Shown piece after piece: positions 11,061-26,656 of a stretch of DNA of 64,000 nucleotides. Origin of the DNA: Candidatus Marinacidobacterium sp. (lineage in GTDB: Bacteria; Acidobacteriota; Vicinamibacteria; Marinacidobacterales; Marinacidobacteraceae); the NCBI GenBank assembly GCA_965220965.1, contig OZ244852.1, positions 864,001 through 928,000 on the forward strand. Reading direction: 5' to 3'. The notes under the pieces are model-generated. The model searched no databases, was not told the DNA's origin, and saw only the letters and a program-made list of their open reading frames with translations. Each line of letters starts with the position of its first letter. Position 1 is the stretch's first letter. The position numbers and the translations under genes were made by a program.

Positions 11061-12752
11061 GTGATTCGCGGAGTGTGGAGCGACTTCGGTCGGTGGAAGG
11101 ATGGTTGGGATGAAATCCAGACAGTGGGCGGCGGTGGACAGGGGAACGGTTACCGTGCGCGTCGCCAGTCAGATGGCCGGGAGGCCTTCGTCAAGGTGAT
11201 CAAGTCCAAGCGCGACGCCGAGCGTCGGAGACGCTTCTTTCGCGAGGCGACAGCCTATGACACGGTTCGCAGCAGTGGCGTTCCGCGACTGATCGAGAGC
11301 AACGCCCATCTCCACGAAGCCGCAGAGATCGAGCCGTATATCGCGACAGAGTTCATCGAGGGGCCAACGTTGAGAATCTGGCGGGACGGACGGCATGAGG
11401 TTGAACTCGCCACCGCCCTAAGATTGGTCCGGTCTCTCCTCGCGGCGATCGGCGACTGTCACCACGGCGGTGTCGTTCACCGCGACATCAAGCCAGACAA
11501 CATCATCCTGAGAGGTGGGAATCCGTCCCAGCCTGTGCTTCTGGATTTTGGCCTGAGCTTCAAGGTGACGCAGACCAGTGAGGCCGTGACCGAAGACGGG
11601 CAGGAAATCGGCAATCGTTTTCTGCGCTTGCATGAGCTCTCCGCCGGTAGTCAACTTAAGCAGGATCCCCGGTCGGACTTGTCGTTTGCTGGTGGAATCC
11701 TGTTCTACTCCCTGACGGGCAGGAATCCCGACATCCCAGAGGATGCGGAGGGTCGTCTCCCTCACCAACGGAGGGATGTGCGTTCGCAGCTTCGACACAT
11801 CGCCGGTGAGCGGTTGGAGCGGTTGCTGTCCATATTCGACAGCGCCTTCGCACCAAGAATCCACGACCGGTTCGTGAACGTCGAGGCAATGGTTGCAAGT
11901 CTGGAGAACCTCACGGAATCGCGGCGTGTTGTGGTGGGCACGTTGGATCATGATCGAGACGCCATCCGTGAGGCGTTGAACACTGCGTCGGCACAGCGGT
12001 CATCAGAGAGTCTTGACAGACTCACGCACGCTCTCGAAGAGCTGCATCGAGTTGACGATGAAGCAGCGACGTGGTTGGACTGTCCTCTAACTCTGACACG
12101 AGGCGGACGGCACGTAGATGCCGACTTGGGAAGAAACACTGTGTCCTGGCGTAAGCGAGGAATGACCGACGATGTGTTACGAGTACAGCAGGAGGTCCGG
12201 GAGGTAGGCGGTGAACTCGTCATCAAGCTGTCGGGCGAAGCGGTCTGGCGGACGGCGGTGAACGCACCGACGTATGGAGAGTGCTTTGCCGAGAGAATTC
12301 GGAGATGGCTGGTCGGGAGACTCCGCGAGGCTATCGCGAATCCGGAGGCGCTGCCGCCCGAGGCCAGCTATTTCCAGGAAGAGCCGCCGCTCGGGTCGCT
12401 AACGGAAGCGCAGGAGCGAGCGCGCCGAGAGGACCGCCACGTTCTGGCGTTCGTGTATGACCCGGCGCAGAAGGAGCGCGGCGAACGCGGCAAATTGGAG
12501 TGGTGTCTGAGCAACTTCCTTGAGAACCGCAGGACGCGCGAAACGCTCCGCGCAGCGTTTGTTCTAGCGCTCGTGCCACTGTCTCAAGTAAGTGCGGTCA
12601 CAGACGAGCTCAGTGGCGAGTCGATGGAGACTTCACGCTGGGTCGTCTTTGATGCGGACCTCGCACCCAAGCGGCACGAAGTCATCTATGCGAACCCGCA
12701 GATGGCGGAGAGTCTCGCCGGTGAGCTGTCCGACGAGTTCGGTCGCCGATAG
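11061..12752 (+). CDS. Cytoplasmic Hanks-type Ser/Thr protein kinase with C-terminal putative thioredoxin-like domain
   Basis: GGGGQG loop, FVK, RFFRE, HRDIKPDNI, LLDFG, GNRFLRLHE, DPRSDL. No TM. More A/T-ending codons than neighbours. Confidence 0.85.
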   Translation: MIRGVWSDFGRWKDGWDEIQTVGGGGQGNGYRARRQSDGREAFVKVIKSKRDAERRRRFFREATAYDTVRSSGVPRLIESNAHLHEAAEIEPYIATEFIEGPTLRIWRDGRHEVELATALRLVRSLLAAIGDCHHGGVVHRDIKPDNIILRGGNPSQPVLLDFGLSFKVTQTSEAVTEDGQEIGNRFLRLHELSAGSQLKQDPRSDLSFAGGILFYSLTGRNPDIPEDAEGRLPHQRRDVRSQLRHIAGERLERLLSIFDSAFAPRIHDRFVNVEAMVASLENLTESRRVVVGTLDHDRDAIREALNTASAQRSSESLDRLTHALEELHRVDDEAATWLDCPLTLTRGGRHVDADLGRNTVSWRKRGMTDDVLRVQQEVREVGGELVIKLSGEAVWRTAVNAPTYGECFAERIRRWLVGRLREAIANPEALPPEASYFQEEPPLGSLTEAQERARREDRHVLAFVYDPAQKERGERGKLEWCLSNFLENRRTRETLRAAFVLALVPLSQVSAVTDELSGESMETSRWVVFDADLAPKRHEVIYANPQMAESLAGELSDEFGRR

Positions 12753-16436: not shown

Positions 16437-19028
16437 ATGTCGCAGCTTCGCCGTTTCCGGTTCCGGGTCGCGCTCCTCGCCGTCGCTTCTCTGCTGGTCG
16501 CCGGGTTGGCCGGCGCGCAGGACGCGCCGCCGGCCATCCCGTCGATCGCGGACAAGACCTCCGGCATGACAGCGATCGACGGCTTCGTCCCGCTCCACTG
16601 GGACGAACGCACCGGGAAGATCTACGCCGAGCTGGGTCCGATGGAGGAGGAGTTCCTCTACCAGGTCTCGGCCGGTTCGGGCCTCGGCAGCAACCCGGTC
16701 GGTCTGGACCGCGGCCAGTTGAGCATGACGGCGGTGCTCCGTCCGATGCGGATCGGGCCGCGGGTGCTCCTCATGGAGCCCAACTACCGGTTCCGCGCGA
16801 TCAGCGACAACCCCGACGAGGTCCGCGCCGTCCGCGATGCGTTCGCGCCCTCGGTGCACTGGGGATTCCAGGTGGAGGCCGAGACCGGAGACCGGGTCCT
16901 GGTGGACATGACCGACTTCTTCCTGCGCGACACCCACGGCGCCATCGCCCGGCTGGCCCGCGCCCGGCAGGGGACCTACCGGCTCGACCGCGACCGCAGC
17001 GCCTTCTACCTGGAGAACACCAAGGGCTTCCCCGACAACACCGAGGTCGAGACCCTGCTCACGTTCACTTCGGACAATCCGGGACCGCTCGTCCAGGCGA
17101 CGGCCGCCAGCGGGGAAGCGGTGACGCTGCGCCAGCACCACTCGCTCGTCCGCCTTCCCGGCCCCGGCTTCGAAATGCGCATCGCCGACCCGAGGATCGG
17201 CGTGAACGGCCCGCAGTACATGGACTACGCGACCGCGATCGACGAGCCGATGACCGTCCGGCTCACCGCCCGGCACCGCCTCGAGAAGCGCGATCCCTCG
17301 GCGGAGCGTTCCGAGGTGGTCGAGCCGATCGTCTACTACCTCGACCGGGGCGCTCCCGAGCCGATCCGGAGCGCGCTCCTCGAGGGGGCCCGCTGGTGGA
17401 ACGAGGCGTTCGAGGCGGCCGGCTTCATCGACGGCTACCGGGTCGAGGTCCTTCCGGAAGGCGCCGACGCCCAGGACGTCCGCTACAACATGATCCACTG
17501 GACGCACCGGCGAACTCGCGGCTGGTCCTATGGCGGTTCGGTCCAGGACCCGCGCACCGGGGAGATCATCAAGGGGAACGTGAACCTCGGGAGCCTGCGG
17601 CTGCGGCAGGACCACCTCCTCGGGGTCGGCATGGTCGCGCCGTATGTCGGGGGCTCGGGCGCCGCGCCGGCCGGCCACGACCACGGGATGCACGGCCTTC
17701 CGCCGGACCCCGGCGGCCCGCACTCCTGCGGCCTCTCCGCGACGCCGGGATTCGGGTATCTGGCGCAGATCAGCCCGGACGCCGACCCGGTGGAGCTGGC
17801 GCTGGCCCGCGTGCGGCAGCTCTCCGCCCATGAGGTGGGCCACACGCTGGGATTCCCGCACAACTACATGTCGTCCACCTACGACGGCCGCGCCAGTGTC
17901 ATGGACTATCCGGCGCCGCTGGCGACGCTGGAAGACGACGGGACGGTCTCGCTGAGCGACGCCTACGGCGTCGGCGTGGGCTCCTACGACATCCTCTCGG
18001 TCCGCTGGGCCTACGCCCACGTCCCGCCCGCCGAGACTGCGGCCACGCTCGACCGGATCATGCAGGAAGGGCTCATGGCGGAGACCCGGTTCATGGCCCA
18101 CACCGACAACTACATCGGGGCGGGCGCGCACCCGCTGGCCTCCGTCTGGGACAACGGCGGCGATCTGGTCCGCCACCTCGGCCGCGAGATCGACATCCGG
18201 CAGGCGGGTCTGGACGCCTTCGGCGAGCGCGTGATCCGGGTGGGCGAACCGATGTCACGGCTCGAGCCGGTTCTGATGCCGCTCTATCTCCACCACCGCT
18301 TCCAGATGAAGGCGGCGATGAACACCATCGGCGGGCAGGAGTACTACTACGCGGTCCGGGGCGACGGGCAACGCCCGGTGAACGCCGTCCCCGGCGACCG
18401 CCAGCGCGAAGCCCTTGACACCGTCCTGAGGACGCTCGACACGAGCTTCCTGGCCCTTCCGAGGCGCATCGTCGAGATGATCCCCCCGCCTGCCTACCGG
18501 GAGCGGGGAACGGAGACCTTCGACGGGCACACCGGCGTCGTCTTCGACCCGCTGGCGGCGGCGGACACTTCCGCCGACTACACCGTCGAGCTGCTGCTCC
18601 ACCCCGAGCGGATGGCGCGGCTGGTGAACAACCACGCGCTCGACCCGGACCAGCCCGGACTGAGCGAGGTCCTCGACCGGCTCACAGAGGCCACCTGGGG
18701 AGAGGACGAGCCGGATGACACCTACCACCGCGCCGTCCAGGACGCCGCCGAGCGCAGCGTGCTGAACGGGATGATGCGGGAAGCGCTGAACCCGGACAAC
18801 CCGGCGCGCGTTCGCGCCGTCATCGAGGACCGGCTCGTCGCCCTCGGAGAGAGCCTGGGCGAGATGGACGACCGCAGCCCGCACGAGGAGCTGGCGTGGA
18901 TGGACATCGACCGCTTCCTCGACCGGGACGACAGTCTCGACCCCAACGCCCGCCGTCCGGCCCTCCCGCCGGGCTCCCCCATCGGCGGCGCCTCGGCGTC
19001 AGGGGAGCGCATCCACCCGGGCCACTGA
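16437..19028 (+). CDS. Secreted zinc-dependent metalloprotease (DUF5117/DUF4953, EcxA-like)
   Basis: Signal peptide; EPIVYYLD, WNEAFEAAGF, DPRTGEIIKG, HEVGHTLGFPHN, Met-turn SVMDYP. Confidence 0.88.
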   Translation: MSQLRRFRFRVALLAVASLLVAGLAGAQDAPPAIPSIADKTSGMTAIDGFVPLHWDERTGKIYAELGPMEEEFLYQVSAGSGLGSNPVGLDRGQLSMTAVLRPMRIGPRVLLMEPNYRFRAISDNPDEVRAVRDAFAPSVHWGFQVEAETGDRVLVDMTDFFLRDTHGAIARLARARQGTYRLDRDRSAFYLENTKGFPDNTEVETLLTFTSDNPGPLVQATAASGEAVTLRQHHSLVRLPGPGFEMRIADPRIGVNGPQYMDYATAIDEPMTVRLTARHRLEKRDPSAERSEVVEPIVYYLDRGAPEPIRSALLEGARWWNEAFEAAGFIDGYRVEVLPEGADAQDVRYNMIHWTHRRTRGWSYGGSVQDPRTGEIIKGNVNLGSLRLRQDHLLGVGMVAPYVGGSGAAPAGHDHGMHGLPPDPGGPHSCGLSATPGFGYLAQISPDADPVELALARVRQLSAHEVGHTLGFPHNYMSSTYDGRASVMDYPAPLATLEDDGTVSLSDAYGVGVGSYDILSVRWAYAHVPPAETAATLDRIMQEGLMAETRFMAHTDNYIGAGAHPLASVWDNGGDLVRHLGREIDIRQAGLDAFGERVIRVGEPMSRLEPVLMPLYLHHRFQMKAAMNTIGGQEYYYAVRGDGQRPVNAVPGDRQREALDTVLRTLDTSFLALPRRIVEMIPPPAYRERGTETFDGHTGVVFDPLAAADTSADYTVELLLHPERMARLVNNHALDPDQPGLSEVLDRLTEATWGEDEPDDTYHRAVQDAAERSVLNGMMREALNPDNPARVRAVIEDRLVALGESLGEMDDRSPHEELAWMDIDRFLDRDDSLDPNARRPALPPGSPIGGASASGERIHPGH

Positions 19029-19038
19029 GCGGCTCACG

Positions 19039-19070
19039 GGACCTCCCGGAGCCAAGACTCCGGGAGTTCC
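19039..19070. terminator. GC hairpin between convergent genes, possible bidirectional terminator
   Basis: CTCCCGGAG (19043-51), loop CCAAGA, CTCCGGGAG (19058-66) is a perfect 9-bp inverted repeat, extendable by GGA/TCC. No long U tract. Confidence 0.45.
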
Positions 19071-19101
19071 GCTCCGCGGTCAGAGGTTCAGGTCCGCCCA
19101 C

Positions 19102-22100
19102 CTATCCGCGGGATAGCGCCTGTTCGATCTCATTCAGGGCGAATTTGCGGTTCAGGTGTGGGTGCAGCCACTGATTCCGATAACTCCTGAGGCACCCATA
19201 GCAGCTCGCGTCGCAACCGCAGTCGCCGCGCACACGCGTTCGCGCAAGTTCCAGCACGAGGCGGAAACTCTCCCTGTTGGTGAGTTGGCCTACGAGTCCA
19301 GCGCCGCCAGGAACATCGTCGTAGAGAACCACTCCGTCCACGGTAAGGGTGACGTTCAGGTCGCGTTCGGGGACGGCAACGGCATCGGCAGCTCCATGGA
19401 GAAGCGCGTACCCGAGCGAATACCGAACCCACTTCTGGCGCCCCGGCAGCTCAACCTTGACCACATCTGTGACAAGCTCGTGACCCAACGCGTAGCTGGA
19501 GAAGGTACCTCGGCAGGGACGCCCGTCCGCTGTCTTGTGGCCGCGCGCCCGTGGGTTCGCGTCGTGTAGTCCGCAGTCCTCGCACAGCAAGAAGTTGCGC
19601 TGACCCTGACCCTCACAGAGAACCACTAACCTGCCTGGCAGAGCCTCTGCGACATCGAGCCCGAAGAGTCTCTTCTTGTGGGCCTTGCGCGCCCCAGCGG
19701 AATACCCCTGGAAGAACGGCTTCGTCGTATACTGACGGCGCGGTCGGCGCACCGGAGGGCGTGGGTCGGTCTGGAGGTCGGTAGTAAAGCCCCAACGTGG
19801 GACGAGATAGCGACCTGAGTACTGTGCACCTTCCTCCTTCTCCGCGTCATTTGAGGATTCGAAGGCGCCCTCCTCGTTCCAGAAGTACCAGCGGACGGTG
19901 GGAGCCTGCCCCTCGACCCTCCGAATACCCACAGACTTCCACTCCAGCTTGTCGGCGACTACGCTGCTCCCAGGCGCGTATTCGGCAAGCGCGAGTGAGA
20001 GATCACGGTCGAGCTCTATGTTCTGGCCATTCTTGGTCGCTCCCGTTTGCAGCTCGACCACATCCACCGGAAATCCGTATTTTGGGATGATGGCGTGTCG
20101 CGCCAGAAACGAAATCGCCATCTCCCGCTCCATCGCGTTCAATCGGTCCTCCAACCGATAGCGCCTCCTTCGTTCAGTGCGAGTGGCATTCAGATCCGCC
20201 AGGATCCGTTCGATCTGAAGATACTCGGCGCACCGATCGGCGACGGCGCGGGCGAGTCTGCTCTCGCTCCCGGTAAGCCGTCGAACCCATTTCTGTCCAT
20301 CGACCCCGACGCTCTCCCGCAGCGTCGCCGGAACGACGTCGTGCAGGACTCGCGGCAGCGCGTCGTCGTTGCGGCAGAACTCGCCGAAAGCATCACACAC
20401 ATCGGGGTGTCGCCAGTCCTCGCCAATGAAATCCTTGACTCGTCCGGCGCGAATACGATGCGCCGGCTGCCGGAAGAAGTGTGATAGGGCGACCGCGGTC
20501 ATGTGCCTTTGGACGATCTGAGGATTTGTCAGGCGAAGGATCGGCGGTCGGACCCGACCAGAGATCATCTCCTGCTGATGTCGGAAGTAGTGGAGGTCAT
20601 GGGAGTTGCGGCGACAGTAGGTGACGGCAAGACCTGCCTTCCCCCGCCGGCCGGCGCGGCCGACTCGTTGTGTGTAGTTGAACGGTTCGGGTGGCACGTT
20701 ACGAAGAAACGTCAGGCGAAGATCACCGAGGTCGACACCGACTTCGAACGTAGTGGACGAACTGAGCAGGTGCACCCGATCCCGCTGAAAATCGCGCTGG
20801 ACGCTGCGCGCTTCCTCCGGAGTCAACTGCGCTGTGTGTTCGGCCGTTCTGAAGTCTGCTGGAAGGTCCGATGCGAGGTAGAGGCGTCGGTAGTGGTTGT
20901 CCTCGTGCGTGCTCTTCACCCGACCGAGTCGTCCCGTGCAGCGAGGACGGGGACAGAGGCCGCGAAGGGCTATGGCAGTGACCCGGTCGCACCTACGACA
21001 CCGCCAGAGGTCGGATGACGAGGCCGGACGGACACGGAGCCACTCGGCGCGCAGCCGGAAGCCGTTAGTCCTGCGATCGATGGACAGGAGAGCGGCGCTG
21101 GACGAGCGTCGCGACTGAGCGACGAGGTGATCCCAGACACGAACCATCACATCTTGGGCGGCGAACACGGGGTCCGTCTCACCATTGACTAGTTTGGGAA
21201 GATAGTCGCGAACAAGGCCGCCCTGCGGTGAGCCCCACTGGCGCAGATGACGGCGTCCGTGCGGACGATCTTGGCTGAAGGCGAGTTGGGGCCTCTCTGG
21301 CTTTATGACGGACCACGTGGGCAGATCCGGATCGGTGGAGGGCAGCTCCACCGCGTCGTTTCTGAGGAACTCGGCGAGCAGCAATTGCAGGAGCGCACTG
21401 GCCTCCGCCGGGTTCAACCGCCAGGGAGTCTCCTGGAACACTGGCGGGAGATTCATGCCCGGAGGCAGTGCGACATGCCAGCGGCAGAGGCCGACCCCCG
21501 CCAGCGACAGCCGCGTGTCATCGGTCACGGCTTCACGAAGCACTGCCGCATAGGCATCTCTGTAGCGCTGTGCTCCAGTCTCCGACGGTGCGTGAACCCC
21601 CAGCTCCGACCGGACTCTCTCGAGTCTCTGCGCGAGATCGGCCACGGACAACTCGCAGTGACTCGCGCCACGCGGTGAAGCCTTCTGTCGAAGGGCGCGG
21701 AGCAACAGGTTGCGCGTGAGCAGAGTCCGGTAGGAGTCCTCCGCATACCAAGCAAAGAAAGCTGCGTCCTGTCGGCTATCCGCGAAGGCAAGGATCTTCT
21801 TCTCATCCTCGGGAAGAAACCGGTGCATGGCCGTAGCCAGAACGGCGTTGGGGGCGTCGGCGCCGTGGACGATCGCCTGAACGGGATCGCCAACGCCACC
21901 TCGGCTGTAGCTACAGACCGCGCACCTCTTCAGTTGATCCCGGTACTCCGGTTGCTGTCGGTTCTCACTCCGTTCAACACGGATCGCCGCTCCACAGCGG
22001 CACGTCAGCTCGTCGCTCAGCGCACCGCAGATACGGCAGAGCAGAAGGGAACCCTCCTCGGCGGGCAGGTAGAACTCGACCCCGAACTCCTCGCGCGACG

Positions 22101-23358
22101 GATCCCGGCAGGCTTCCAGGAGGAACCCTCCGGTACGGCGGCCAACGTAGTAGTGCTGGCCACACTCGCGGCACAGCGCTATCTCGATATAGGCCGACTT
22201 GCCAGCCTCATCCCCGACATGACCGCGGTTCAGCGTGACCCGGTCCTGCCCATGATGGTGATGCAGGAAAGCGCCTTCAAGCGCCCTTGCAAACACGTGG
22301 TAGCGACGTACGTGCGCACTCGTCCTGGCCCGTGTAGTGTCCTCCTGACCGAAGATCACGCACTCGGGAGCGAAGGGCTCACCGAACAGGGCACTCGCAA
22401 ATCGAGCCACGGATGCCCGAGCATCGGCATCGTGTGTCGACGCGATGGTGGCGCTCGTGGCGACGCATCGAAATGACCCCGACCGGCCGCCTCGCCGCAG
22501 TCGATTCGTGAGACGGCGCAGCAGCATCGCCATCTCGATCCCCCTTGCACCGCGATACATGTGCGCCTCGTCGAGGACCAGAAACCGCCAGTGAGCGGCC
22601 CGGCCGGCATCGAACAAAGGGCTGTCATCCGGCCGGAGGAGCAGATGCTCGAGCATCGAGTAGTTGGTAAACAGAAGGTGCGGCGGCCGCGCCCGCATAT
22701 CCTCGCGGAATACTGTTTCGCCGGGGAGCGCGCTCTCAGCGCGCGCGCGACCGTGCCGGCGTCGGTCTCTGATGTTCTCCGGTGTCTGCCCGATGTACTG
22801 TCCAAAGGAGAATCGGAAGTCGGAGCGGTCCGCAGCGAGGTTGCCGCAGAGCGCGCCGATCCGCTCGCGCTGGTCGTTGACCAGGGCGTTCATGGGATAG
22901 AGAACGAGGGCGCGGACGCCGGGGTCGCCCAGCGTGCCGGCCAGGTGTTCTCCGTAGAGGGAGAACAGAATGGGATAAAGGAAGCACTCGGTCTTCCCGC
23001 TGGCTGTGCCGCTCGCCACGGCGATGTTGGACTGTGCGAACGCGCTCTGTCGAATGGCCTCCTCCTGATGTGCATAGAGCGCGCCGGAGTGCAGAGCAGG
23101 TAAGAGCGCGCCTGCCCGGCCAGGAAACGCCGCCTCGGCGAGAGCGGGAGCCTCGACCCCGAGCCGAAAATACCGGCCGTATTCCGGAACAGGTTCGGTG
23201 ACCAGTGTGCCCTCGGCTTCGAGCGCGGTGCGGAAGGACTCGCGTAGTTGGGGATCTCGGAAATGGAAAGATGTTGTGAGGTACCTGAGGTAGCTCGAAC
23301 GCAGACGTCGGACCCACCCGGCGATCTCCGCGTCGGAATGGGGTTGGGTGACGCTCAT
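19102..23358 (-). CDS. DEAD/DEAH-box SF2 helicase with multiple Zn fingers and C-terminal DUF1998 (Druantia DruE / MrfA-like)
   Basis: LYAHQEEAI, GTASGKTE, LYPMNALVNDQ, TNYSMLE, LVLDEAH, ATSAT, AFADSRQDAA, EHTAQL, TTFEVGVDLG, QRVGRAGRR, LYDDVPGGAG and CGCDASCYGCL. Start placed at ATG 23358 (MSVTQPHSD) because the longer ORF overlaps the upstream gene. Confidence 0.9.
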   Translation of the reverse strand: MSVTQPHSDAEIAGWVRRLRSSYLRYLTTSFHFRDPQLRESFRTALEAEGTLVTEPVPEYGRYFRLGVEAPALAEAAFPGRAGALLPALHSGALYAHQEEAIRQSAFAQSNIAVASGTASGKTECFLYPILFSLYGEHLAGTLGDPGVRALVLYPMNALVNDQRERIGALCGNLAADRSDFRFSFGQYIGQTPENIRDRRRHGRARAESALPGETVFREDMRARPPHLLFTNYSMLEHLLLRPDDSPLFDAGRAAHWRFLVLDEAHMYRGARGIEMAMLLRRLTNRLRRGGRSGSFRCVATSATIASTHDADARASVARFASALFGEPFAPECVIFGQEDTTRARTSAHVRRYHVFARALEGAFLHHHHGQDRVTLNRGHVGDEAGKSAYIEIALCRECGQHYYVGRRTGGFLLEACRDPSREEFGVEFYLPAEEGSLLLCRICGALSDELTCRCGAAIRVERSENRQQPEYRDQLKRCAVCSYSRGGVGDPVQAIVHGADAPNAVLATAMHRFLPEDEKKILAFADSRQDAAFFAWYAEDSYRTLLTRNLLLRALRQKASPRGASHCELSVADLAQRLERVRSELGVHAPSETGAQRYRDAYAAVLREAVTDDTRLSLAGVGLCRWHVALPPGMNLPPVFQETPWRLNPAEASALLQLLLAEFLRNDAVELPSTDPDLPTWSVIKPERPQLAFSQDRPHGRRHLRQWGSPQGGLVRDYLPKLVNGETDPVFAAQDVMVRVWDHLVAQSRRSSSAALLSIDRRTNGFRLRAEWLRVRPASSSDLWRCRRCDRVTAIALRGLCPRPRCTGRLGRVKSTHEDNHYRRLYLASDLPADFRTAEHTAQLTPEEARSVQRDFQRDRVHLLSSSTTFEVGVDLGDLRLTFLRNVPPEPFNYTQRVGRAGRRGKAGLAVTYCRRNSHDLHYFRHQQEMISGRVRPPILRLTNPQIVQRHMTAVALSHFFRQPAHRIRAGRVKDFIGEDWRHPDVCDAFGEFCRNDDALPRVLHDVVPATLRESVGVDGQKWVRRLTGSESRLARAVADRCAEYLQIERILADLNATRTERRRRYRLEDRLNAMEREMAISFLARHAIIPKYGFPVDVVELQTGATKNGQNIELDRDLSLALAEYAPGSSVVADKLEWKSVGIRRVEGQAPTVRWYFWNEEGAFESSNDAEKEEGAQYSGRYLVPRWGFTTDLQTDPRPPVRRPRRQYTTKPFFQGYSAGARKAHKKRLFGLDVAEALPGRLVVLCEGQGQRNFLLCEDCGLHDANPRARGHKTADGRPCRGTFSSYALGHELVTDVVKVELPGRQKWVRYSLGYALLHGAADAVAVPERDLNVTLTVDGVVLYDDVPGGAGLVGQLTNRESFRLVLELARTRVRGDCGCDASCYGCLRSYRNQWLHPHLNRKFALNEIEQALSRG

Positions 23359-23407
23359 CGATCCGTGGCGCGGAGCATCCGATCGCAGACCCGGGTCCAG
23401 GCGTGCC

Positions 23408-25957
23408 TCATCGGGACGTGAGGGCCCGAAGGGCCGCGACGGCGGCGTTGACGACGTGGGCGCGGGACCCGATGGAACGAACGCGAATGCTTCGGATGCC
23501 TGCGGTCTCCAAGAGCGCCCGTAGACGGCCACGGGCGTGAACGCCCGAGTCGGCGCTCGCGGGCCGCAGCAGAAGGCGCGAGGAGCCATAGGCGCCAACC
23601 GTGGCGCGCGGAATGGTGTTGTGGGAGATCGGGACGACGAACAGGGCGCGTCGAGCCCGATGCTCGGCCCGGGCACATGCTCTTCGAGGTGTGCTCTCGC
23701 ATGCGCGTCCGACGCCGAGTCGGCCGTTGCGATCACCCACGGCTACGAGCGCCACGAATCGTCGGTGTCGAGGCGCTACGGCCCGCCGTGAGAGCGGTCG
23801 GAGCGTGAGAAGGCGAGGGGTCAGCGCCGGTGGAGATTGGGAGGGGGACGGGTGGGAAGGAAGTTCGAGGAGGAGTGCCGGCAGAGTGTGCGAGCCAGCC
23901 CGTAGCCTGAGTTCCCCGGACGCTGGCTCGGATTGGACAGAGAGGAGGTCGGCGAAAGAGCCCAGCGGAATCGAGACGGCCGTCTTGTGCGGAAACTGGG
24001 CAGCAAGGCCACTGTCGGCCTCGTGGCGGTAGCGTCCGGGCTGACCGTCAGCGAAGGCCGCCTCGATCGTCCGCTCCGTGGGTGGCGCCAGAACCTCCAG
24101 TGCGGCGTGTCGCCGATAGGTTCGGCGAAGCGGTCGTCGCTCCCAGCAGGAGTCACCCGCCATCCGCCACCAGAGGCGCGGCAGATCCAGGACAATCGGG
24201 AGGCTGTCGTCGCCGTCGCGCAGTTCAAGGCGCACCCGATCGGTCTTGGGGGAGTACGGCACCCGCGCCTCTCGAGTGCGAACGGCCACATCGCGCGTGC
24301 CGGTGTTGAGCTGCAGCGACCGACCATGGCTGTCTTCGATCGTGATGTAGTCCTCGTCGCGGTCGTCTGGCAAGAGGAGTCGGAGACCCTCGAATGGCAG
24401 TCCGTTCACCAGAATCCTCTTGAGGCCTGGCCAGTAGCGGAACGTGGTCGTGTCGGCGAGATGAGTGTGGCCGCTCTGATACGTGCGAAGAAAGAACTCG
24501 CCGCGCCTGTTCCCAATGCGCACGGGTGTTGGCTGCTCTGTGAGTTCGAAGTTCTTGCCCTTCCACGGTTCGTCGGCTGGCCCCGCGTGGCGCCCGGCGG
24601 CGCGGGGGTGCTCCTCTCCGACGCGAGCCCAGACTATCCCGGGCGCGGGCCAGAGTCTGGGAGGATCCCCGACGAAGAGCTCATCGTCATCGCTGTCGAG
24701 GACCGTGGTCCCCTCGAGGCGCGCACTCTTGTCGGAGCCGACGGGATAGTCCCCAAGTGTGCCCAGGGAGTCGGCGTCGTCCGAGGGCCGGATTTCGTAG
24801 TGATGACAATGTAGGCTCGGATCCGTGCAGAGCTCCGACGCTCGGAACTTCTGTTGACTGCGCTTCCAATTCGGCGGCGCAAAGGCGAGGAAACGGCCAC
24901 GACGGAGGGTCCGTGAGAGCTCCCCGCGCAGGTCGGGCTCGGTTCCGGAGAGCCTGAAGAAGAGCGGTCTCTGGTTGTCGAACAGCGGAATGTCAAGCGG
25001 ATCTCCGTTCGATGGGAAAAGACGCACGGGCTGCCGCAACCGGGAGAGAAACAGGCGACCGTCCACCAGGTCCATTTCCTCGTTGCCCTGGGTCGCCCTC
25101 TCTATGTTGCGCTCGCGCGGAATCTCGATCACGACGCGCCATCGATTCCTGTGGCGCGTGCACTTCACGCGTACCGGAGGGAGACGCGGCCCGGTATCGC
25201 CGGTGGGGTTGGGGCGGCGCCGGGGACCGATGCGCCGAGGTTCCCCTGGCTGGCGCGGAAGTTCGTAGTCGAGCCGTGCGCGTGAGCGCCTGATTTCTGT
25301 CGCGTGTAGGGTGACTTGTCCAGGGGATTCCCGCCGCTCGTCGGCAGACTCCGCGCCGTCGTTCGACATTGGATCGGGAGGCGAAGAGTGGTCTCGATCT
25401 TCGTCCGCGCGGGCCGTGGACATACTGGCGTCGACGGCCAACCCGGCGCCTCTGGCCGGTCCTGGAGGGGGATGTTGATCGTGATGGCTGTGCGTGCTGT
25501 CCGGAGGACGTCGGAGTGCTTCGCTGGCGTCTGGCTCCGGAGAGTCGGGGGTGCTCTCCGGGAAGTGCTCATGGGCCGGCTCGTCGGTGTCCCCCTCGAC
25601 CAGGGGTGGCTCCTGGACTGAAGAGGCCACTGTACGGACGATGTCTGATGGTGCGTCAGGCGTCGCGCGTTCCAGATCGGGTGGCCGATTGGTCGATTTG
25701 GGCGGCGTCTCGAGGGTCGGCGAGTGGGGGCCGTCAGACACGGAGAGCTGCGGTGCGACGTGCGGCGCCGACGAGGTCTCGGCTTCGGATGAGGAAGGCG
25801 CCGGTGTCTTCTGGTCATGTGGGATCGTCCGGTGCGAGGCGCCCTTCAACGCGCCGTGGGTCCGAACCGCCGGCTCCCGCTCCACGGGAGGTCGCGGCTT
25901 GATCCGCACCCACGCCAACAGGCGCTGAAGCGGCGCGATGAGCCACCGGAAGGCCAT
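23408..25957 (-). CDS. 849-aa helicase partner protein with C-terminal ribosomal protein uS5-like domain
   Basis: AAGGAG upstream of ATG 25957. Amphipathic N-terminus, ~240-aa Pro/Ser/Asp-rich linker, beta-rich middle, PSHPSPSQSPP linker, then FVALVAVGDRNGRLGVG...TIP...G.YGSSRLLLRPAS..SGV.A.G.LRALLETAGI......IGS matching uS5. Confidence 0.8.
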   Translation of the reverse strand: MAFRWLIAPLQRLLAWVRIKPRPPVEREPAVRTHGALKGASHRTIPHDQKTPAPSSSEAETSSAPHVAPQLSVSDGPHSPTLETPPKSTNRPPDLERATPDAPSDIVRTVASSVQEPPLVEGDTDEPAHEHFPESTPDSPEPDASEALRRPPDSTHSHHDQHPPPGPARGAGLAVDASMSTARADEDRDHSSPPDPMSNDGAESADERRESPGQVTLHATEIRRSRARLDYELPRQPGEPRRIGPRRRPNPTGDTGPRLPPVRVKCTRHRNRWRVVIEIPRERNIERATQGNEEMDLVDGRLFLSRLRQPVRLFPSNGDPLDIPLFDNQRPLFFRLSGTEPDLRGELSRTLRRGRFLAFAPPNWKRSQQKFRASELCTDPSLHCHHYEIRPSDDADSLGTLGDYPVGSDKSARLEGTTVLDSDDDELFVGDPPRLWPAPGIVWARVGEEHPRAAGRHAGPADEPWKGKNFELTEQPTPVRIGNRRGEFFLRTYQSGHTHLADTTTFRYWPGLKRILVNGLPFEGLRLLLPDDRDEDYITIEDSHGRSLQLNTGTRDVAVRTREARVPYSPKTDRVRLELRDGDDSLPIVLDLPRLWWRMAGDSCWERRPLRRTYRRHAALEVLAPPTERTIEAAFADGQPGRYRHEADSGLAAQFPHKTAVSIPLGSFADLLSVQSEPASGELRLRAGSHTLPALLLELPSHPSPSQSPPALTPRLLTLRPLSRRAVAPRHRRFVALVAVGDRNGRLGVGRACESTPRRACARAEHRARRALFVVPISHNTIPRATVGAYGSSRLLLRPASADSGVHARGRLRALLETAGIRSIRVRSIGSRAHVVNAAVAALRALTSR

Positions 25958-26273
25958 GCTCAGCCGAGGTCTCCTTGGGTGTGAGTTGGACCCAGCGCCG
26001 CGCGCGCTCCGGCGGCCGAGGCTCTCTTGAAGGGTGTGATCGGTGCGCGCGCCTGTCGTGCGAGATGCGAACCAGCCTCGGCGAAGAGGGACACGGCCCG
26101 ATTATGCGGCAGTCCCTCGTCTGCCGGTCGGCGGTCTGGGCTCCGGCCGGTCAGCCTGATGGACGCACGCGTCCGATCTCCGCCAGCCGCTCAGAGAAGG
26201 CGAAAACTTCGGACCCGACGCCTGCTCCAAATCGGCGCTCACCGCGCGGGGGCGGGCACACAGATGGAGCGCT

Positions 26274-26330
26274 ATGTTCCGCTTGGACGATGGCGAGGCC
26301 ACTGACGTGGACCTGATCAACCAACATTGA
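26274..26330 (+). pseudogene. higB: C-terminal remnant of a HigB/RelE-family toxin
   Basis: MFRLDDGEATDVDLINQH* resembles the HigB ending (F.F.DG.A.DVDL.DYH). The frame is closed upstream at TGA 26157-59 with no HigB-like N-terminus. It lies directly before the higA RBS. Confidence 0.7.
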
Positions 26331-26344
26331 CAGGAGCGGTGACC

Positions 26345-26656
26345 ATGAACCACGCGAGCACCCGGATCGGTCCGATGCGGAACCCGCCGCACCTCGGCGA
26401 GCTCATCTGCGAGAGCATGGACGATCTGGGCTTGAGCGTGACCGAGACGGCGACGCGCTTGGGCTGCGAGCGCGCAACCCTGTCCCGCCTTCTGAACGGC
26501 AAGGCGGCGATGTCGGCCCGCATGGCGCTGGCGCTGGAAGCGATCGGCTGGGGGACCGCCGAACACTGGATGCGGATGCAGGCGAGCTACGAGCTCGCGC
26601 AGGCGCGTCGGACCCGGAGCGCCGCCGGGGGAAGTCCGGCGCCACCTCGGTGCTGA
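26345..26656 (+). CDS. higA: HigA family addiction-module antitoxin (HTH)
   Basis: AGGAG RBS at 26332; MRNPPHLGELI, LSVTETATRLG..RATLSRLLNGKAAMS..MALALE, WMRMQASYEL. Confidence 0.9.
   Translation: MNHASTRIGPMRNPPHLGELICESMDDLGLSVTETATRLGCERATLSRLLNGKAAMSARMALALEAIGWGTAEHWMRMQASYELAQARRTRSAAGGSPAPPRC

Follow-up and report, generated by a model that had tools for sequence, protein, structure and literature searches.

Organisation of the locus

The window analysed here is a stretch of 64,000 nucleotides from a Candidatus Marinacidobacterium sp. (contig OZ244852.1, positions 864,001 to 928,000). On its minus strand it carries the gene of a compact DruE helicase and, upstream of it, a partner gene whose product ends in a diverged copy of ribosomal protein uS5. 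The features, in positions of the window, are:

19102..23358, minus strand: compact DruE helicase with its ATG at 23358 (1418 aa), with DEAD, Helicase_C and MZB domains and without a PLD nuclease (Pfam)
23408..25957, minus strand: gene for the 849-aa partner of the DruE helicase, stop codon included
25898..25957, minus strand: Trp/Arg-rich amphipathic N-terminal segment of about 20 residues, apparently a family-wide motif, as similar N-termini are readable in family members and relatives
25256..25897, minus strand: low-complexity spacer rich in Pro, Ser, Glu and Asp, residues 21-234, without conservation in the alignment
23891..25255, minus strand: all-beta core conserved in the alignment, residues 235-689, a predicted array of Ig/Fn3-like domains
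23819..23890, minus strand: linker including PSHPSPSQSPP, residues 690-713 (translation)
23630..23815, minus strand: uS5 N-terminal (dsRBD-like) domain, strongly diverged (Pfam PF00333, 36.5 bits)
23417..23596, minus strand: uS5 C-terminal domain, kept better than the N-terminal one (Pfam PF03719, 41.8 bits; fold match)

The 849-aa frame, the linker and the C-terminal sequence quoted in the initial annotation were all found as described. That annotation had also read the tail as a domesticated uS5 joined to a helicase-partner protein, which agrees with our results; the helicase is DruE. It matched the PADLOC models DruE1 (1.3e-143) and DruE3 (7e-135), and its BLASTP alignment with the 2114-aa DruE of E. 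coli stops at residue 1729 of the E. coli protein. The two genes are separated by 49 nt, and the GC content of the locus is 63-67%, versus 70-75% in the flanks. Pairs of partner and DruE, with the partner upstream, were present in 6 of the 40 relatives searched. Across 16 genome loci DruE lay directly downstream of the partner in all except one (15/16), and no recurrent third gene was found.

Across the family, the N-terminal region is 169 aa long at the median, with Pro, Ser, Glu and Asp accounting for 44% of it. The core was modelled by AlphaFold2 with a pLDDT of mostly 80-95, and Foldseek matched it to multi-Ig proteins; among PDB structures these were generic, of low TM, and did not include a DruH-like fold. 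A profile of the core gave no match to PDB sequences below E=0.9, and Pfam recognised only the S5 domains in the whole partner ORF. PADLOC gave no match at E<=1 on the window's partner, on P0001 or on eight family members, while the DruH of E. coli matches 12 of the DruH models, and hhalign of the partner against E. coli DruH returned a probability of 0.4%. Judged by these comparisons, the partner family is distinct from DruH/YjiT and not recognisable as DruH.

A ribosomal protein paralogue at the C-terminus

Residues 714-849 are a genuine two-domain uS5 module, a paralogue of the real rpsE product. As the initial annotation had it, both domains are present: with the whole ORF as query, Pfam placed Ribosomal_S5 (PF00333) at residues 715-776 (E=4.8e-9, 36.5 bits for a cut-off of 27.1) and Ribosomal_S5_C (PF03719) at residues 788-847 (E=7.2e-11, 41.8 bits for a cut-off of 21.5). 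At a threshold of E<=0.001, a phmmer search of PDB chains yielded 153 distinct sequences, with 2.2e-22 as the best value, and every one of the 60 listed was named uS5 or S5. The tail was modelled by AlphaFold2 at a pLDDT of 91.1 and a pTM of 0.84 from a uS5-only alignment, versus a pLDDT below 50 in a model whose alignment was dominated by other tail types. The best 50 Foldseek matches of the tail model were all ribosome or ribosomal-protein-S5 entries; its superposition on uS5 chains gave query TM values of 0.85-0.90 and an rmsd mostly of 2.1-2.6 Å (range 1.6-3.2). The HMM and structural matches are both significant.

The tail is 33% identical to the uS5 of its own genome. The figure of about one third given earlier had been estimated against E. 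coli uS5; the accompanying claim of a gap-free alignment did not hold, as there is one 2-residue indel near the C-terminus. The loss of the KGG and GKA motifs and the gain of arginine described there were borne out by the alignment: both motifs, invariant in the aligned host uS5 copies, are changed, and the tail holds 28 Arg, no Lys and a net charge of +23, versus +11 for host uS5. Residues that are invariant in host uS5 were kept at 12 of 51 positions in the N-terminal domain and at 22 of 42 in the C-terminal domain; two other diverged copies, from G014 and G017, kept only 6 and 5 of the 51. Since KGG and GKA are lost, specific binding of rRNA by the window's tail is doubtful, and because of these changes and of the few invariant residues left in the N-terminal domain, incorporation of this copy into the 30S subunit appears unlikely.

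As had been stated, this gene is not the rpsE of the organism. The canonical copy lies elsewhere in the genome (215 bits), in the spc operon order uS8-uL6-uL18-uS5-uL30-uL15-SecY, whereas the fused copy sits outside this operon, upstream of DruE and not between rplR and rpmD. The NCBIfam model rpsE_bact (TIGR01021) gave the fused copy 84.2 bits, under its equivalog cut-off of 164.05.

A core family with interchangeable tails

The core defines a family of 861 cluster representatives in a profile search, and we took a census of the tails in 150 of them. A C-terminal module of some kind was present in 141, and homologues of the middle region exchange tails, which is what the initial annotation had suggested looking for: uS5, bS6, bS18, the KH domains of NusA and an eL13-like motif all occur in this place. 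The eL13-like motif is by far the commonest (110/150, local HMM); uS5 was found in five representatives, bS6 in three, NusA KH1-KH2 in three and bS18 in one. The bS6 tails scored 87.6 and 80.8 bits and also exceeded the NCBIfam cut-off. In P0012 and L031 the eL13-like motif scored above its Pfam cut-off, and a profile of these tails matched eL13 chains of the PDB at 3e-13. The ribosomal, NusA and eL13-like tails all come from RNA-binding proteins.

Other tails were also met. One is a MacB periplasmic-core-like domain, and 17 of the 23 tails classed as 'other' received no tail-domain assignment in domain and sequence searches; a further 'other' tail, that of P0112, gave a weak HHH_5 match under the cut-off of that model. 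A HARE-HTH fold guessed for the tails of P0015, P0030 and P0071 was abandoned, as Pfam was blank for all three and the Atlas and PDB searches were blank for P0015, the one tail submitted to them. The tail of G009 aligns with the eL13-like tails, and Pfam gave no match at E<=1 on this protein.

The fusion to uS5 itself is conserved: of the six partner-bearing relatives five have it, as do two metagenome contigs with one identical partner sequence. A phylum-wide search found the core in at least 1 of 400 other genomes, a lower bound obtained with four candidates scored per genome. A word-indexed homologue search with residues 250-849 returned only the partner protein itself; with a 125-row alignment it returned six proteins, and two of these are annotated with PF01294.

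Origin and evolution of the fused uS5

Identity between a fused uS5 and the uS5 of its own host spans 89% to 29%. Near-canonical copies occur in three lineages, G006 (89%), G010 (86%) and L041/L042; these retain either 89 of the 93 host-invariant residues or a sequence that is nearly the same. The fused uS5 derives from a Vicinamibacteria rpsE. Its sister copies within the window's clade, at 86-89% identity to host uS5, also have the C-terminal extension of the host protein. The widespread tail on the core tree is the eL13-like one. uS5 was gained at least twice, in P0057 and in a 14-member clade (support 1.0), and near-canonical and diverged tails are intermixed on the tree.

The fused copy of G006 differs from the rpsE of its own genome by a dS of 0.41, from six other host copies of the family by 0.75-1.18 and from the order-level G034 by 1.31. 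Judging from these synonymous sites, this copy was recently recaptured from its own host gene. The core evolves fast, with 49% identity inside one genus, whereas the diverged tails of G014 and G017 are 66% identical at a dN/dS of 0.36; these two tails are under purifying selection and are better conserved than their core. Low dN/dS values of fused copies against host rpsE partly reflect the time before capture, spent as real rpsE.

Proposed role and alternatives

The reading that we favour, tentatively, is that the tail may be an exchangeable nucleic-acid-binding module of a two-gene Druantia-like system, a module whose binding activity and link to defence we infer. The partner would be the non-helicase subunit of this anti-phage system, with the compact DruE as the other. 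It would begin with a short amphipathic helix and continue through a long disordered spacer and an Ig-like array, likely the sensing or scaffold part, to the exchangeable module at the C-terminus. In most family members the module would be the eL13-like RNA-binding motif; in the window's clade a full copy of Vicinamibacteria rpsE would have taken its place, which would later have diverged in the window genome (33% identity, net charge +23) with its C-terminal domain better kept. The module would bind RNA or single strands made by DruE and tether the sensor to its substrate or to machinery rich in RNA, as the C-terminal domain of E. coli DruH reportedly does through ssDNA. One report places ssDNA binding by E. 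coli DruH at the interface of Ig5 and the C-terminal domain (10.64898/2026.05.12.722862), and another describes BREX-related ATPases with a hypervariable C-terminal RRM and FnIII repeats (PMC12839542).

The commonest tail is eL13-like and we know of no eL13 in bacteria, which speaks against a pure host decoy family-wide and favours nucleic-acid binding. Several observations count against nucleic-acid binding: a near-canonical uS5, found in three lineages, is not obviously needed for it, recapture from host rpsE is not explained by it in its simple form, 17 'other' tails are without a domain match, and one tail is a MacB periplasmic-core-like domain, which is not known as a nucleic-acid binder.

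Repeated recapture from host rpsE is what keeps alive the idea of an integrated bait, in which the module would mimic a host protein targeted by phage factors, whether for binding or for modification (uS5 here; in relatives bS6, bS18 or NusA); we consider this idea unlikely. By analogy with the integrated decoys of plant NLR receptors, a phage factor engaging the bait might, at similarly modest likelihood, switch on the DruE system. Extended to the whole family, the proposal, which we hold to be doubtful to the same degree, is that host translation and transcription proteins (uS5, bS6, bS18, NusA), captured and at times recaptured from the host gene, are displayed on an Ig-like scaffold and that phage factors directed at the ribosome or NusA trip the helicase defence, which would make the family a bacterial equivalent of the plant NLR decoys. 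The module was indeed found to be host-derived and swapped among family members, as a decoy should be. The identified ribosomal (non-eL13) and NusA modules are whole domains of host housekeeping proteins, the G006 copy has its lowest synonymous divergence from its own host rpsE, and the core evolves fast. The intermixing of near-canonical and diverged tails fits a module that is refreshed repeatedly and turns over rapidly where host and phage meet. Against a bait stand the predominance of a tail that would have no known bacterial eL13 to mimic, the low identity of the window's tail to host uS5, the share of low dN/dS against host rpsE that predates capture, and our literature search, in which no phage factor targeting uS5 was found.

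uS5, bS6 and bS18 are small-subunit proteins and NusA binds nascent RNA, which would suit another role, anchoring to ribosomes: near-canonical fused uS5, bS6 or bS18 would replace the free protein in the 30S subunit or on 16S rRNA, and the Ig-like sensor would thereby be placed on ribosomes, where phage proteins first appear. The degree to which G006, G010 and L041/L042 preserve host-invariant residues agrees with such a role, and DruH-type sensors are reported to respond to phage structural proteins (10.64898/2026.05.12.724681; PMC13316683). The copies of the window, G014 and G017 have, however, lost most N-domain residues, so that their assembly into a subunit is hardly possible. The eL13-like motif, too, has no site on the bacterial ribosome that we know of, and we judge both the anchoring and the sensor placement that would follow from it to be distinctly improbable. 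That the fusion is an accident in decay, its tail functionless in the window genome, is very improbable. The low identity, an Arg-rich tail in a GC-rich genome and the saturation of dN/dS comparisons of the window's tail with G006 and G014, there being no close relative of this exact copy, would agree with decay; the open frame, the two Pfam domains over their cut-offs, the confidently predicted tail fold and the presence of some C-terminal module in nearly all representatives argue against it. So do the purifying selection on the equally diverged G014 and G017 tails (dN/dS 0.36), which are better conserved than the core, and the presence of the fusion in relatives. An assembly chimera or a frameshift uniting two genes is scarcely credible: the linker showed no chimera signal, positions 23200-24400 being intact and bridged with zero differences in contigs of two public runs from two studies (one possibly the source assembly), and the same architecture recurs in five other genomes and the two metagenome contigs. 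No evidence for such an artefact was found.

Comparison with known systems

A compact Druantia subtype, III-B, has been described (10.64898/2026.05.13.724758), as has a 'Type III-like' branch (PMC12458937). The locus resembles Druantia type III (DruH-DruE) in its two-gene layout, where the upstream gene encodes the partner and the downstream one a DruE with DEAD, Helicase_C and MZB domains; this DruE, compact and without a PLD nuclease, recalls subtype III-B. The partner also resembles DruH as cryo-EM descriptions present it, a large protein with a predicted Ig-like array and a separate C-terminal domain. It departs from type III in lacking any PADLOC or hhalign resemblance to DruH, with Pfam matches to S5 only, and in the ribosomal-protein origin of its C-terminal domain. 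The word 'ribosomal' does not occur in the Druantia/YprA papers searched, and no description of a DruE partner with a ribosomal tail was found in the papers searched; the supplementary III-B domain tables of PMC12458937 may list the partner family. Our literature search found no report of an anti-phage test of a system of the kind seen here.

Compared with rpsE, the fused copy shares both Pfam domains and the fold, and differs in lying behind 713 other residues, outside the spc operon, and in scoring below the equivalog cut-off. Plant NLR immune receptors carry integrated decoy domains on a STAND NTPase scaffold; the partner family is like them in combining a sensor scaffold with a variable terminal host-derived domain acquired repeatedly and independently, and unlike them in that its scaffold consists of an Ig-like array and has a helicase as its partner, and in that its commonest module, the eL13-like one, has no known bacterial counterpart. 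Host translation proteins serve as machine parts elsewhere: PMC13581612 names EF-Tu for Avs7 and uS15 for type V-K CRISPR transposons. The likeness is that a translation protein abundant in the host contributes structure or nucleic-acid binding; in those systems the free host protein is recruited, whereas here a fused copy evolves independently.

What the non-helicase subunit of Druantia type III does is a question left by four recent studies, and the partner family offers a natural experiment on it, in which the same helicase is combined with a different Ig-like partner whose C-terminal slot is filled by an eL13-like, uS5, bS6, bS18 or NusA KH module. Under any reading the module points to a class of ligand, namely RNA, the ribosome or the phage factors attacking them. 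Genes of essential ribosomal proteins can evidently be copied into immune genes and then refreshed from the host copy. Should the decoy reading be true, this would be the first integrated-decoy architecture known to us in bacterial immunity. The conservation of an eL13-like motif in bacterial proteins is unexpected in itself.

The uS5-like tail of the partner protein

The window bears a two-gene DruE system, whose partner protein comprises an N-terminal amphipathic segment, a spacer, a predicted array of Ig-like domains and, at the C-terminus, a module that is exchanged within the family; these modules are drawn mainly from RNA-binding proteins. The following features were located.

25957 to 23408, minus strand: partner ORF, 849 aa
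25898-25957, minus strand: Trp/Arg-rich amphipathic segment of the partner, about 20 residues
Partner residues 715-776: Ribosomal_S5 domain (Pfam 36.5 bits, gathering cut-off 27.1)
Partner residues 788-847: Ribosomal_S5_C domain (Pfam 41.8 bits, gathering cut-off 21.5)
23358 (ATG) to 19102, minus strand: DruE helicase, 1418 aa, directly downstream of the partner
26327-26656, plus strand: small HTH protein (HTH_31/HTH_3), divergent, just upstream of the partner gene
11061-12752, plus strand: protein of 563 aa, Ser/Thr protein kinase domain at its N-terminus (Pfam 8.3e-20)

The initial annotation had read the last 136 residues of the partner, quoted there in agreement with our sequence, as a diverged uS5 that is not rpsE itself. 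Both Pfam uS5 domains scored above their gathering cut-offs, and the bacterial rpsE model of NCBIfam gave 84 bits, far under its equivalog cut-off of 164. A phmmer search of PDB chains returned 153 distinct sequences at E ≤ 0.001 (best E = 2.2e-22), and the best 60 of these are all named uS5 or S5. The AlphaFold2 model of the tail, obtained from a 12-row uS5 alignment, had a mean pLDDT of 91.1; its best 50 Foldseek matches were ribosome or ribosomal-protein-S5 entries throughout, with a query TM of 0.85-0.90 over about 135 columns and an rmsd mostly of 2.1-2.6 Å (range 1.6-3.2). In view of these PDB and Foldseek matches, the likeness of the tail to uS5 is far beyond chance. The real rpsE (215 bits) was found 1.77 Mb away, in the gene order uS8-uL6-uL18-uS5-uL30-uL15-SecY. 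The tail is 33% identical to the uS5 of its own genome, and the arginine gain was borne out (28 Arg, no Lys, net charge +23 versus +11 in the host uS5). The alignment is not gap-free as had been claimed, since it contains one 2-residue indel.

The DruE helicase and its locus

The partner stop codon and the DruE ATG are separated by 49 nt. The helicase carries DEAD, Helicase_C and MrfA Zn-binding domains (Pfam), and matched DruE1 (1.3e-143) and DruE3 (7e-135) in PADLOC. The C-terminal stretch of DruE is assigned to PLD nucleases in the Druantia literature; this stretch is absent from the window's DruE, because the BLASTP alignment with the 2114-aa E. coli DruE stops at E. coli residue 1729. The compact helicase thus matches subtype III-B with its 'compact DruE lacking the PLDs' (10.64898/2026.05.13.724758) and the 'Type III-like' Druantia branch (PMC12458937).

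GC content is 63-67% across the locus (18001-26000) but 70-75% on either side of it, as would be expected of horizontally acquired DNA. The flanks hold unrelated genes on the opposite strand, namely a large ORF with no firm identity (16437-19028) and the HTH protein, for which a regulatory or antitoxin-like role is conceivable. The kinase gene, within another lower-GC stretch (66-67%), may likewise serve in defence or in signalling; the C-terminal half of its product (about 300 residues) has no Pfam match.

Distribution of the partner family

With the window's partner as query, homologues of 31-35% identity were found in 6 of 40 related genomes, all six Acidobacteriota of the class Vicinamibacteria (6 of 24 genomes of the same family, 0 of 16 of two sister families). 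In every case the next gene downstream is a DruE of 1403-1448 aa. The core profile (residues 235-689, alignment A2, 7 rows) retrieved 861 of 1.84 billion cluster representatives at E ≤ 0.001, including 448 at E ≤ 1e-30. In genome contigs 16 loci were detected, the 6 known relatives and 10 new ones from Latescibacterota, Dehalococcoidia, Bryobacterales, Alphaproteobacteria, Pseudomonadales and unclassified bacteria. DruE directly follows the partner in 15 of them, and none was found downstream in the sixteenth. No other neighbour gene recurs outside three syntenic loci. In genomes G006, G014 and G017 the partner copy lies in a common neighbourhood, different from that of the window.

Comparison of the partner with DruH

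Full-length E. coli DruH (YjiT) matches 12 DruH models in PADLOC, versus no match at E ≤ 1 for the window's partner and eight further family members. Profile comparison of the partner core with E. coli DruH gave a probability of 0.4%, and Pfam found nothing in the partner apart from S5. The predicted structure of the core is all-beta (pLDDT mostly 80-95) and resembles multi-Ig/Fn3-domain proteins at low TM only. E. coli DruH is described as a string of Ig/Fn3-like domains followed by a C-terminal domain (10.64898/2026.05.12.722862; 10.64898/2026.05.12.724681; 10.64898/2026.05.13.724758). The partner is not recognisable as a DruH, and we therefore treat it as an architectural analogue, outside the DruH family.

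An exchangeable C-terminal module

The initial annotation had proposed tabulating the C-terminal domains of core homologues. Among the best 150 of the 861 representatives, window's partner included, local HMMs assigned 110 tails to an eL13-like class, 5 to uS5, 3 to NusA-KH and 23 to other types, 9 being short or truncated; swapping among ribosomal and NusA modules was thus seen in this set. All 23 'other' proteins were run against Pfam. Full-length bS6 matches (90 model positions) were obtained for P0078 (87.6 bits) and P0118 (80.8 bits), a bS6 match below the cut-off for P0143 (19.9 bits), a bS18 match for P0147 (49.6 bits), a MacB periplasmic-core-like match for P0082 (3.6e-10) and a weak HHH_5 match under the cut-off for P0112. 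The sole match in two proteins was an N-terminal DUF4389, and fifteen had no Pfam match anywhere. The bS6 and bS18 tails also exceed the NCBIfam equivalog cut-offs.

The NusA-type tail corresponds to positions 203-335 of the 340-position NCBIfam NusA model, i.e. the KH1-KH2 region, and that of P0007 is 47% identical to NusA of the window's genome (G000:C1:1592669-1593106). The eL13-like motif, about 50 residues (GFS..E...D.RR..H..N), ends most family members (e.g. L031:8450-8659 and L030:8642-8851). P0012 (26.9 bits) and locus L031 (31.6 bits) exceed the Pfam threshold for it, and P0003 (19.9 bits) falls short; a 9-row profile of the motif matched eL13 chains of solved archaeal or eukaryotic ribosomes (3.1e-13; yeast eL13 6e-8). 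We know of no eL13 in bacteria. A tail of about 95 residues recurs in two alphaproteobacterial loci (L036:6470-8923 and L038) and in the cluster representatives P0084 and P0105; it has no Pfam match, and that of P0105 matched nothing in PDB or the Atlas.

A tree of 162 cores was built with FastTree (LG+gamma, midpoint root), leaving out incomplete cores; P0006/L027, P0004/L028 and L041/L042 are near-duplicate or same-protein rows. The eL13-like tail is found across the whole tree. A single clade of 14 (support 1.0) takes in all Vicinamibacteria-type uS5 tails, the window's among them, and the three NusA-KH tails are nested within it (0.975). P0057, with a uS5 tail, stands apart; its neighbour is an eL13-type protein (0.865). 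The three bS6 tails group in a single clade (1.0), and the bS18 protein has an eL13-type protein as its sister (0.90). The C-terminal slot has therefore been refilled many times, with at least two entries of uS5. In P0007, P0008 and P0011, within the uS5 clade, NusA KH1-KH2 stands in place of uS5.

Evolution of the fused uS5

Identity between the fused copy and the host's own uS5 is 89% in G006, 86% in G010, 52% in G005, 33% in the window's genome and in G014, and 29% in G017; a further near-canonical copy occurs on two metagenome contigs with one identical partner sequence. The C-terminal domain is the better preserved in diverged copies: the window tail keeps 22 of 42 host-invariant residues there versus 12 of 51 in the N-domain, half of which is gone in G014 and G017.

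Judged by synonymous sites, the nearest host gene to the G006 copy is its own rpsE (dS 0.41, versus 0.75-1.18 to six family hosts and 1.31 to G034; G006 rpsE versus other family hosts, 0.86-1.37), so the copy was captured from, or converted by, host rpsE after the genera split. The flanking genes common to G006, G014 and G017 and the intermixing of canonical and diverged tails on the core tree suggest that the fused uS5 was refreshed instead of undergoing one slow decay. For the G010 copy dS is close to 1 against every host, with a dN of 0.11; this low ratio is no proof of post-fusion constraint, because it may reflect an earlier period as a genuine rpsE in a donor outside the sample. The G014 and G017 tails, of the same derived form, differ by a dS of 0.69 with a dN/dS of 0.36, not near 1, and are 66% identical versus 49% for the cores, from which purifying selection on this diverged type is deduced; the window copy has no relative close enough for such an estimate.

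Possible role of the module

RNA binding is the trait common to the eL13-like motif, uS5, bS6, bS18 and KH, which favours nucleic-acid binding; parsimony is the strongest argument for it, with the eL13-like motif as the ancestral and commonest module. By this comparison, the module may quite possibly act as a tether: it would bind nucleic acid and keep the partner on RNA, or on single strands made by DruE. Such a role would resemble that of the DruH C-terminal domain, where ssDNA binding is reported to compete with ATP (10.64898/2026.05.12.722862).

The decoy also put forward in the initial annotation, an integrated bait for phage factors, is the main rival. It accounts better for whole-domain capture, host-gene recapture and rapid turnover but leaves the eL13-like majority unaccounted for, and we hold it to be rather unlikely. 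Assembly of the canonical tails into 30S subunits, placing a sensor on ribosomes, is improbable; the window's copy looks too diverged for it. Decay of the tail, against a dN/dS that is not near 1 in the diverged G014 and G017 tails, is very improbable, and the chance of an artefact is negligible: in two separate studies, with one public run each, contigs hold 23200-24400, across the fusion, unbroken and without differences, although one of the two runs may be the assembly source.

No DruE partner carrying a module derived from a ribosomal protein was found described in the main texts searched on Druantia, YprA or DruE, nor in those on ribosomal-protein fusions or integrated decoys in anti-phage defence. 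The word 'ribosomal' does not occur in the Druantia and YprA papers searched, L13e has no mention in the searched literature on phage defense, helicase and DUF1998, and the matches listed for DruE with ribosomal protein were unrelated papers. The partner family and its exchangeable ribosomal-protein-derived module are probably undescribed parts of a Druantia-like system.

N-terminal segment and spacer

Many members (e.g. P0004-P0051) start with a stretch similar to the window's Trp/Arg-rich segment; an acidic spacer rich in Pro and Ser comes next (family median 169 aa). The segment is replaced by a membrane-like hydrophobic stretch in 5 of 121 members, and by the N-terminal DUF4389 in two.
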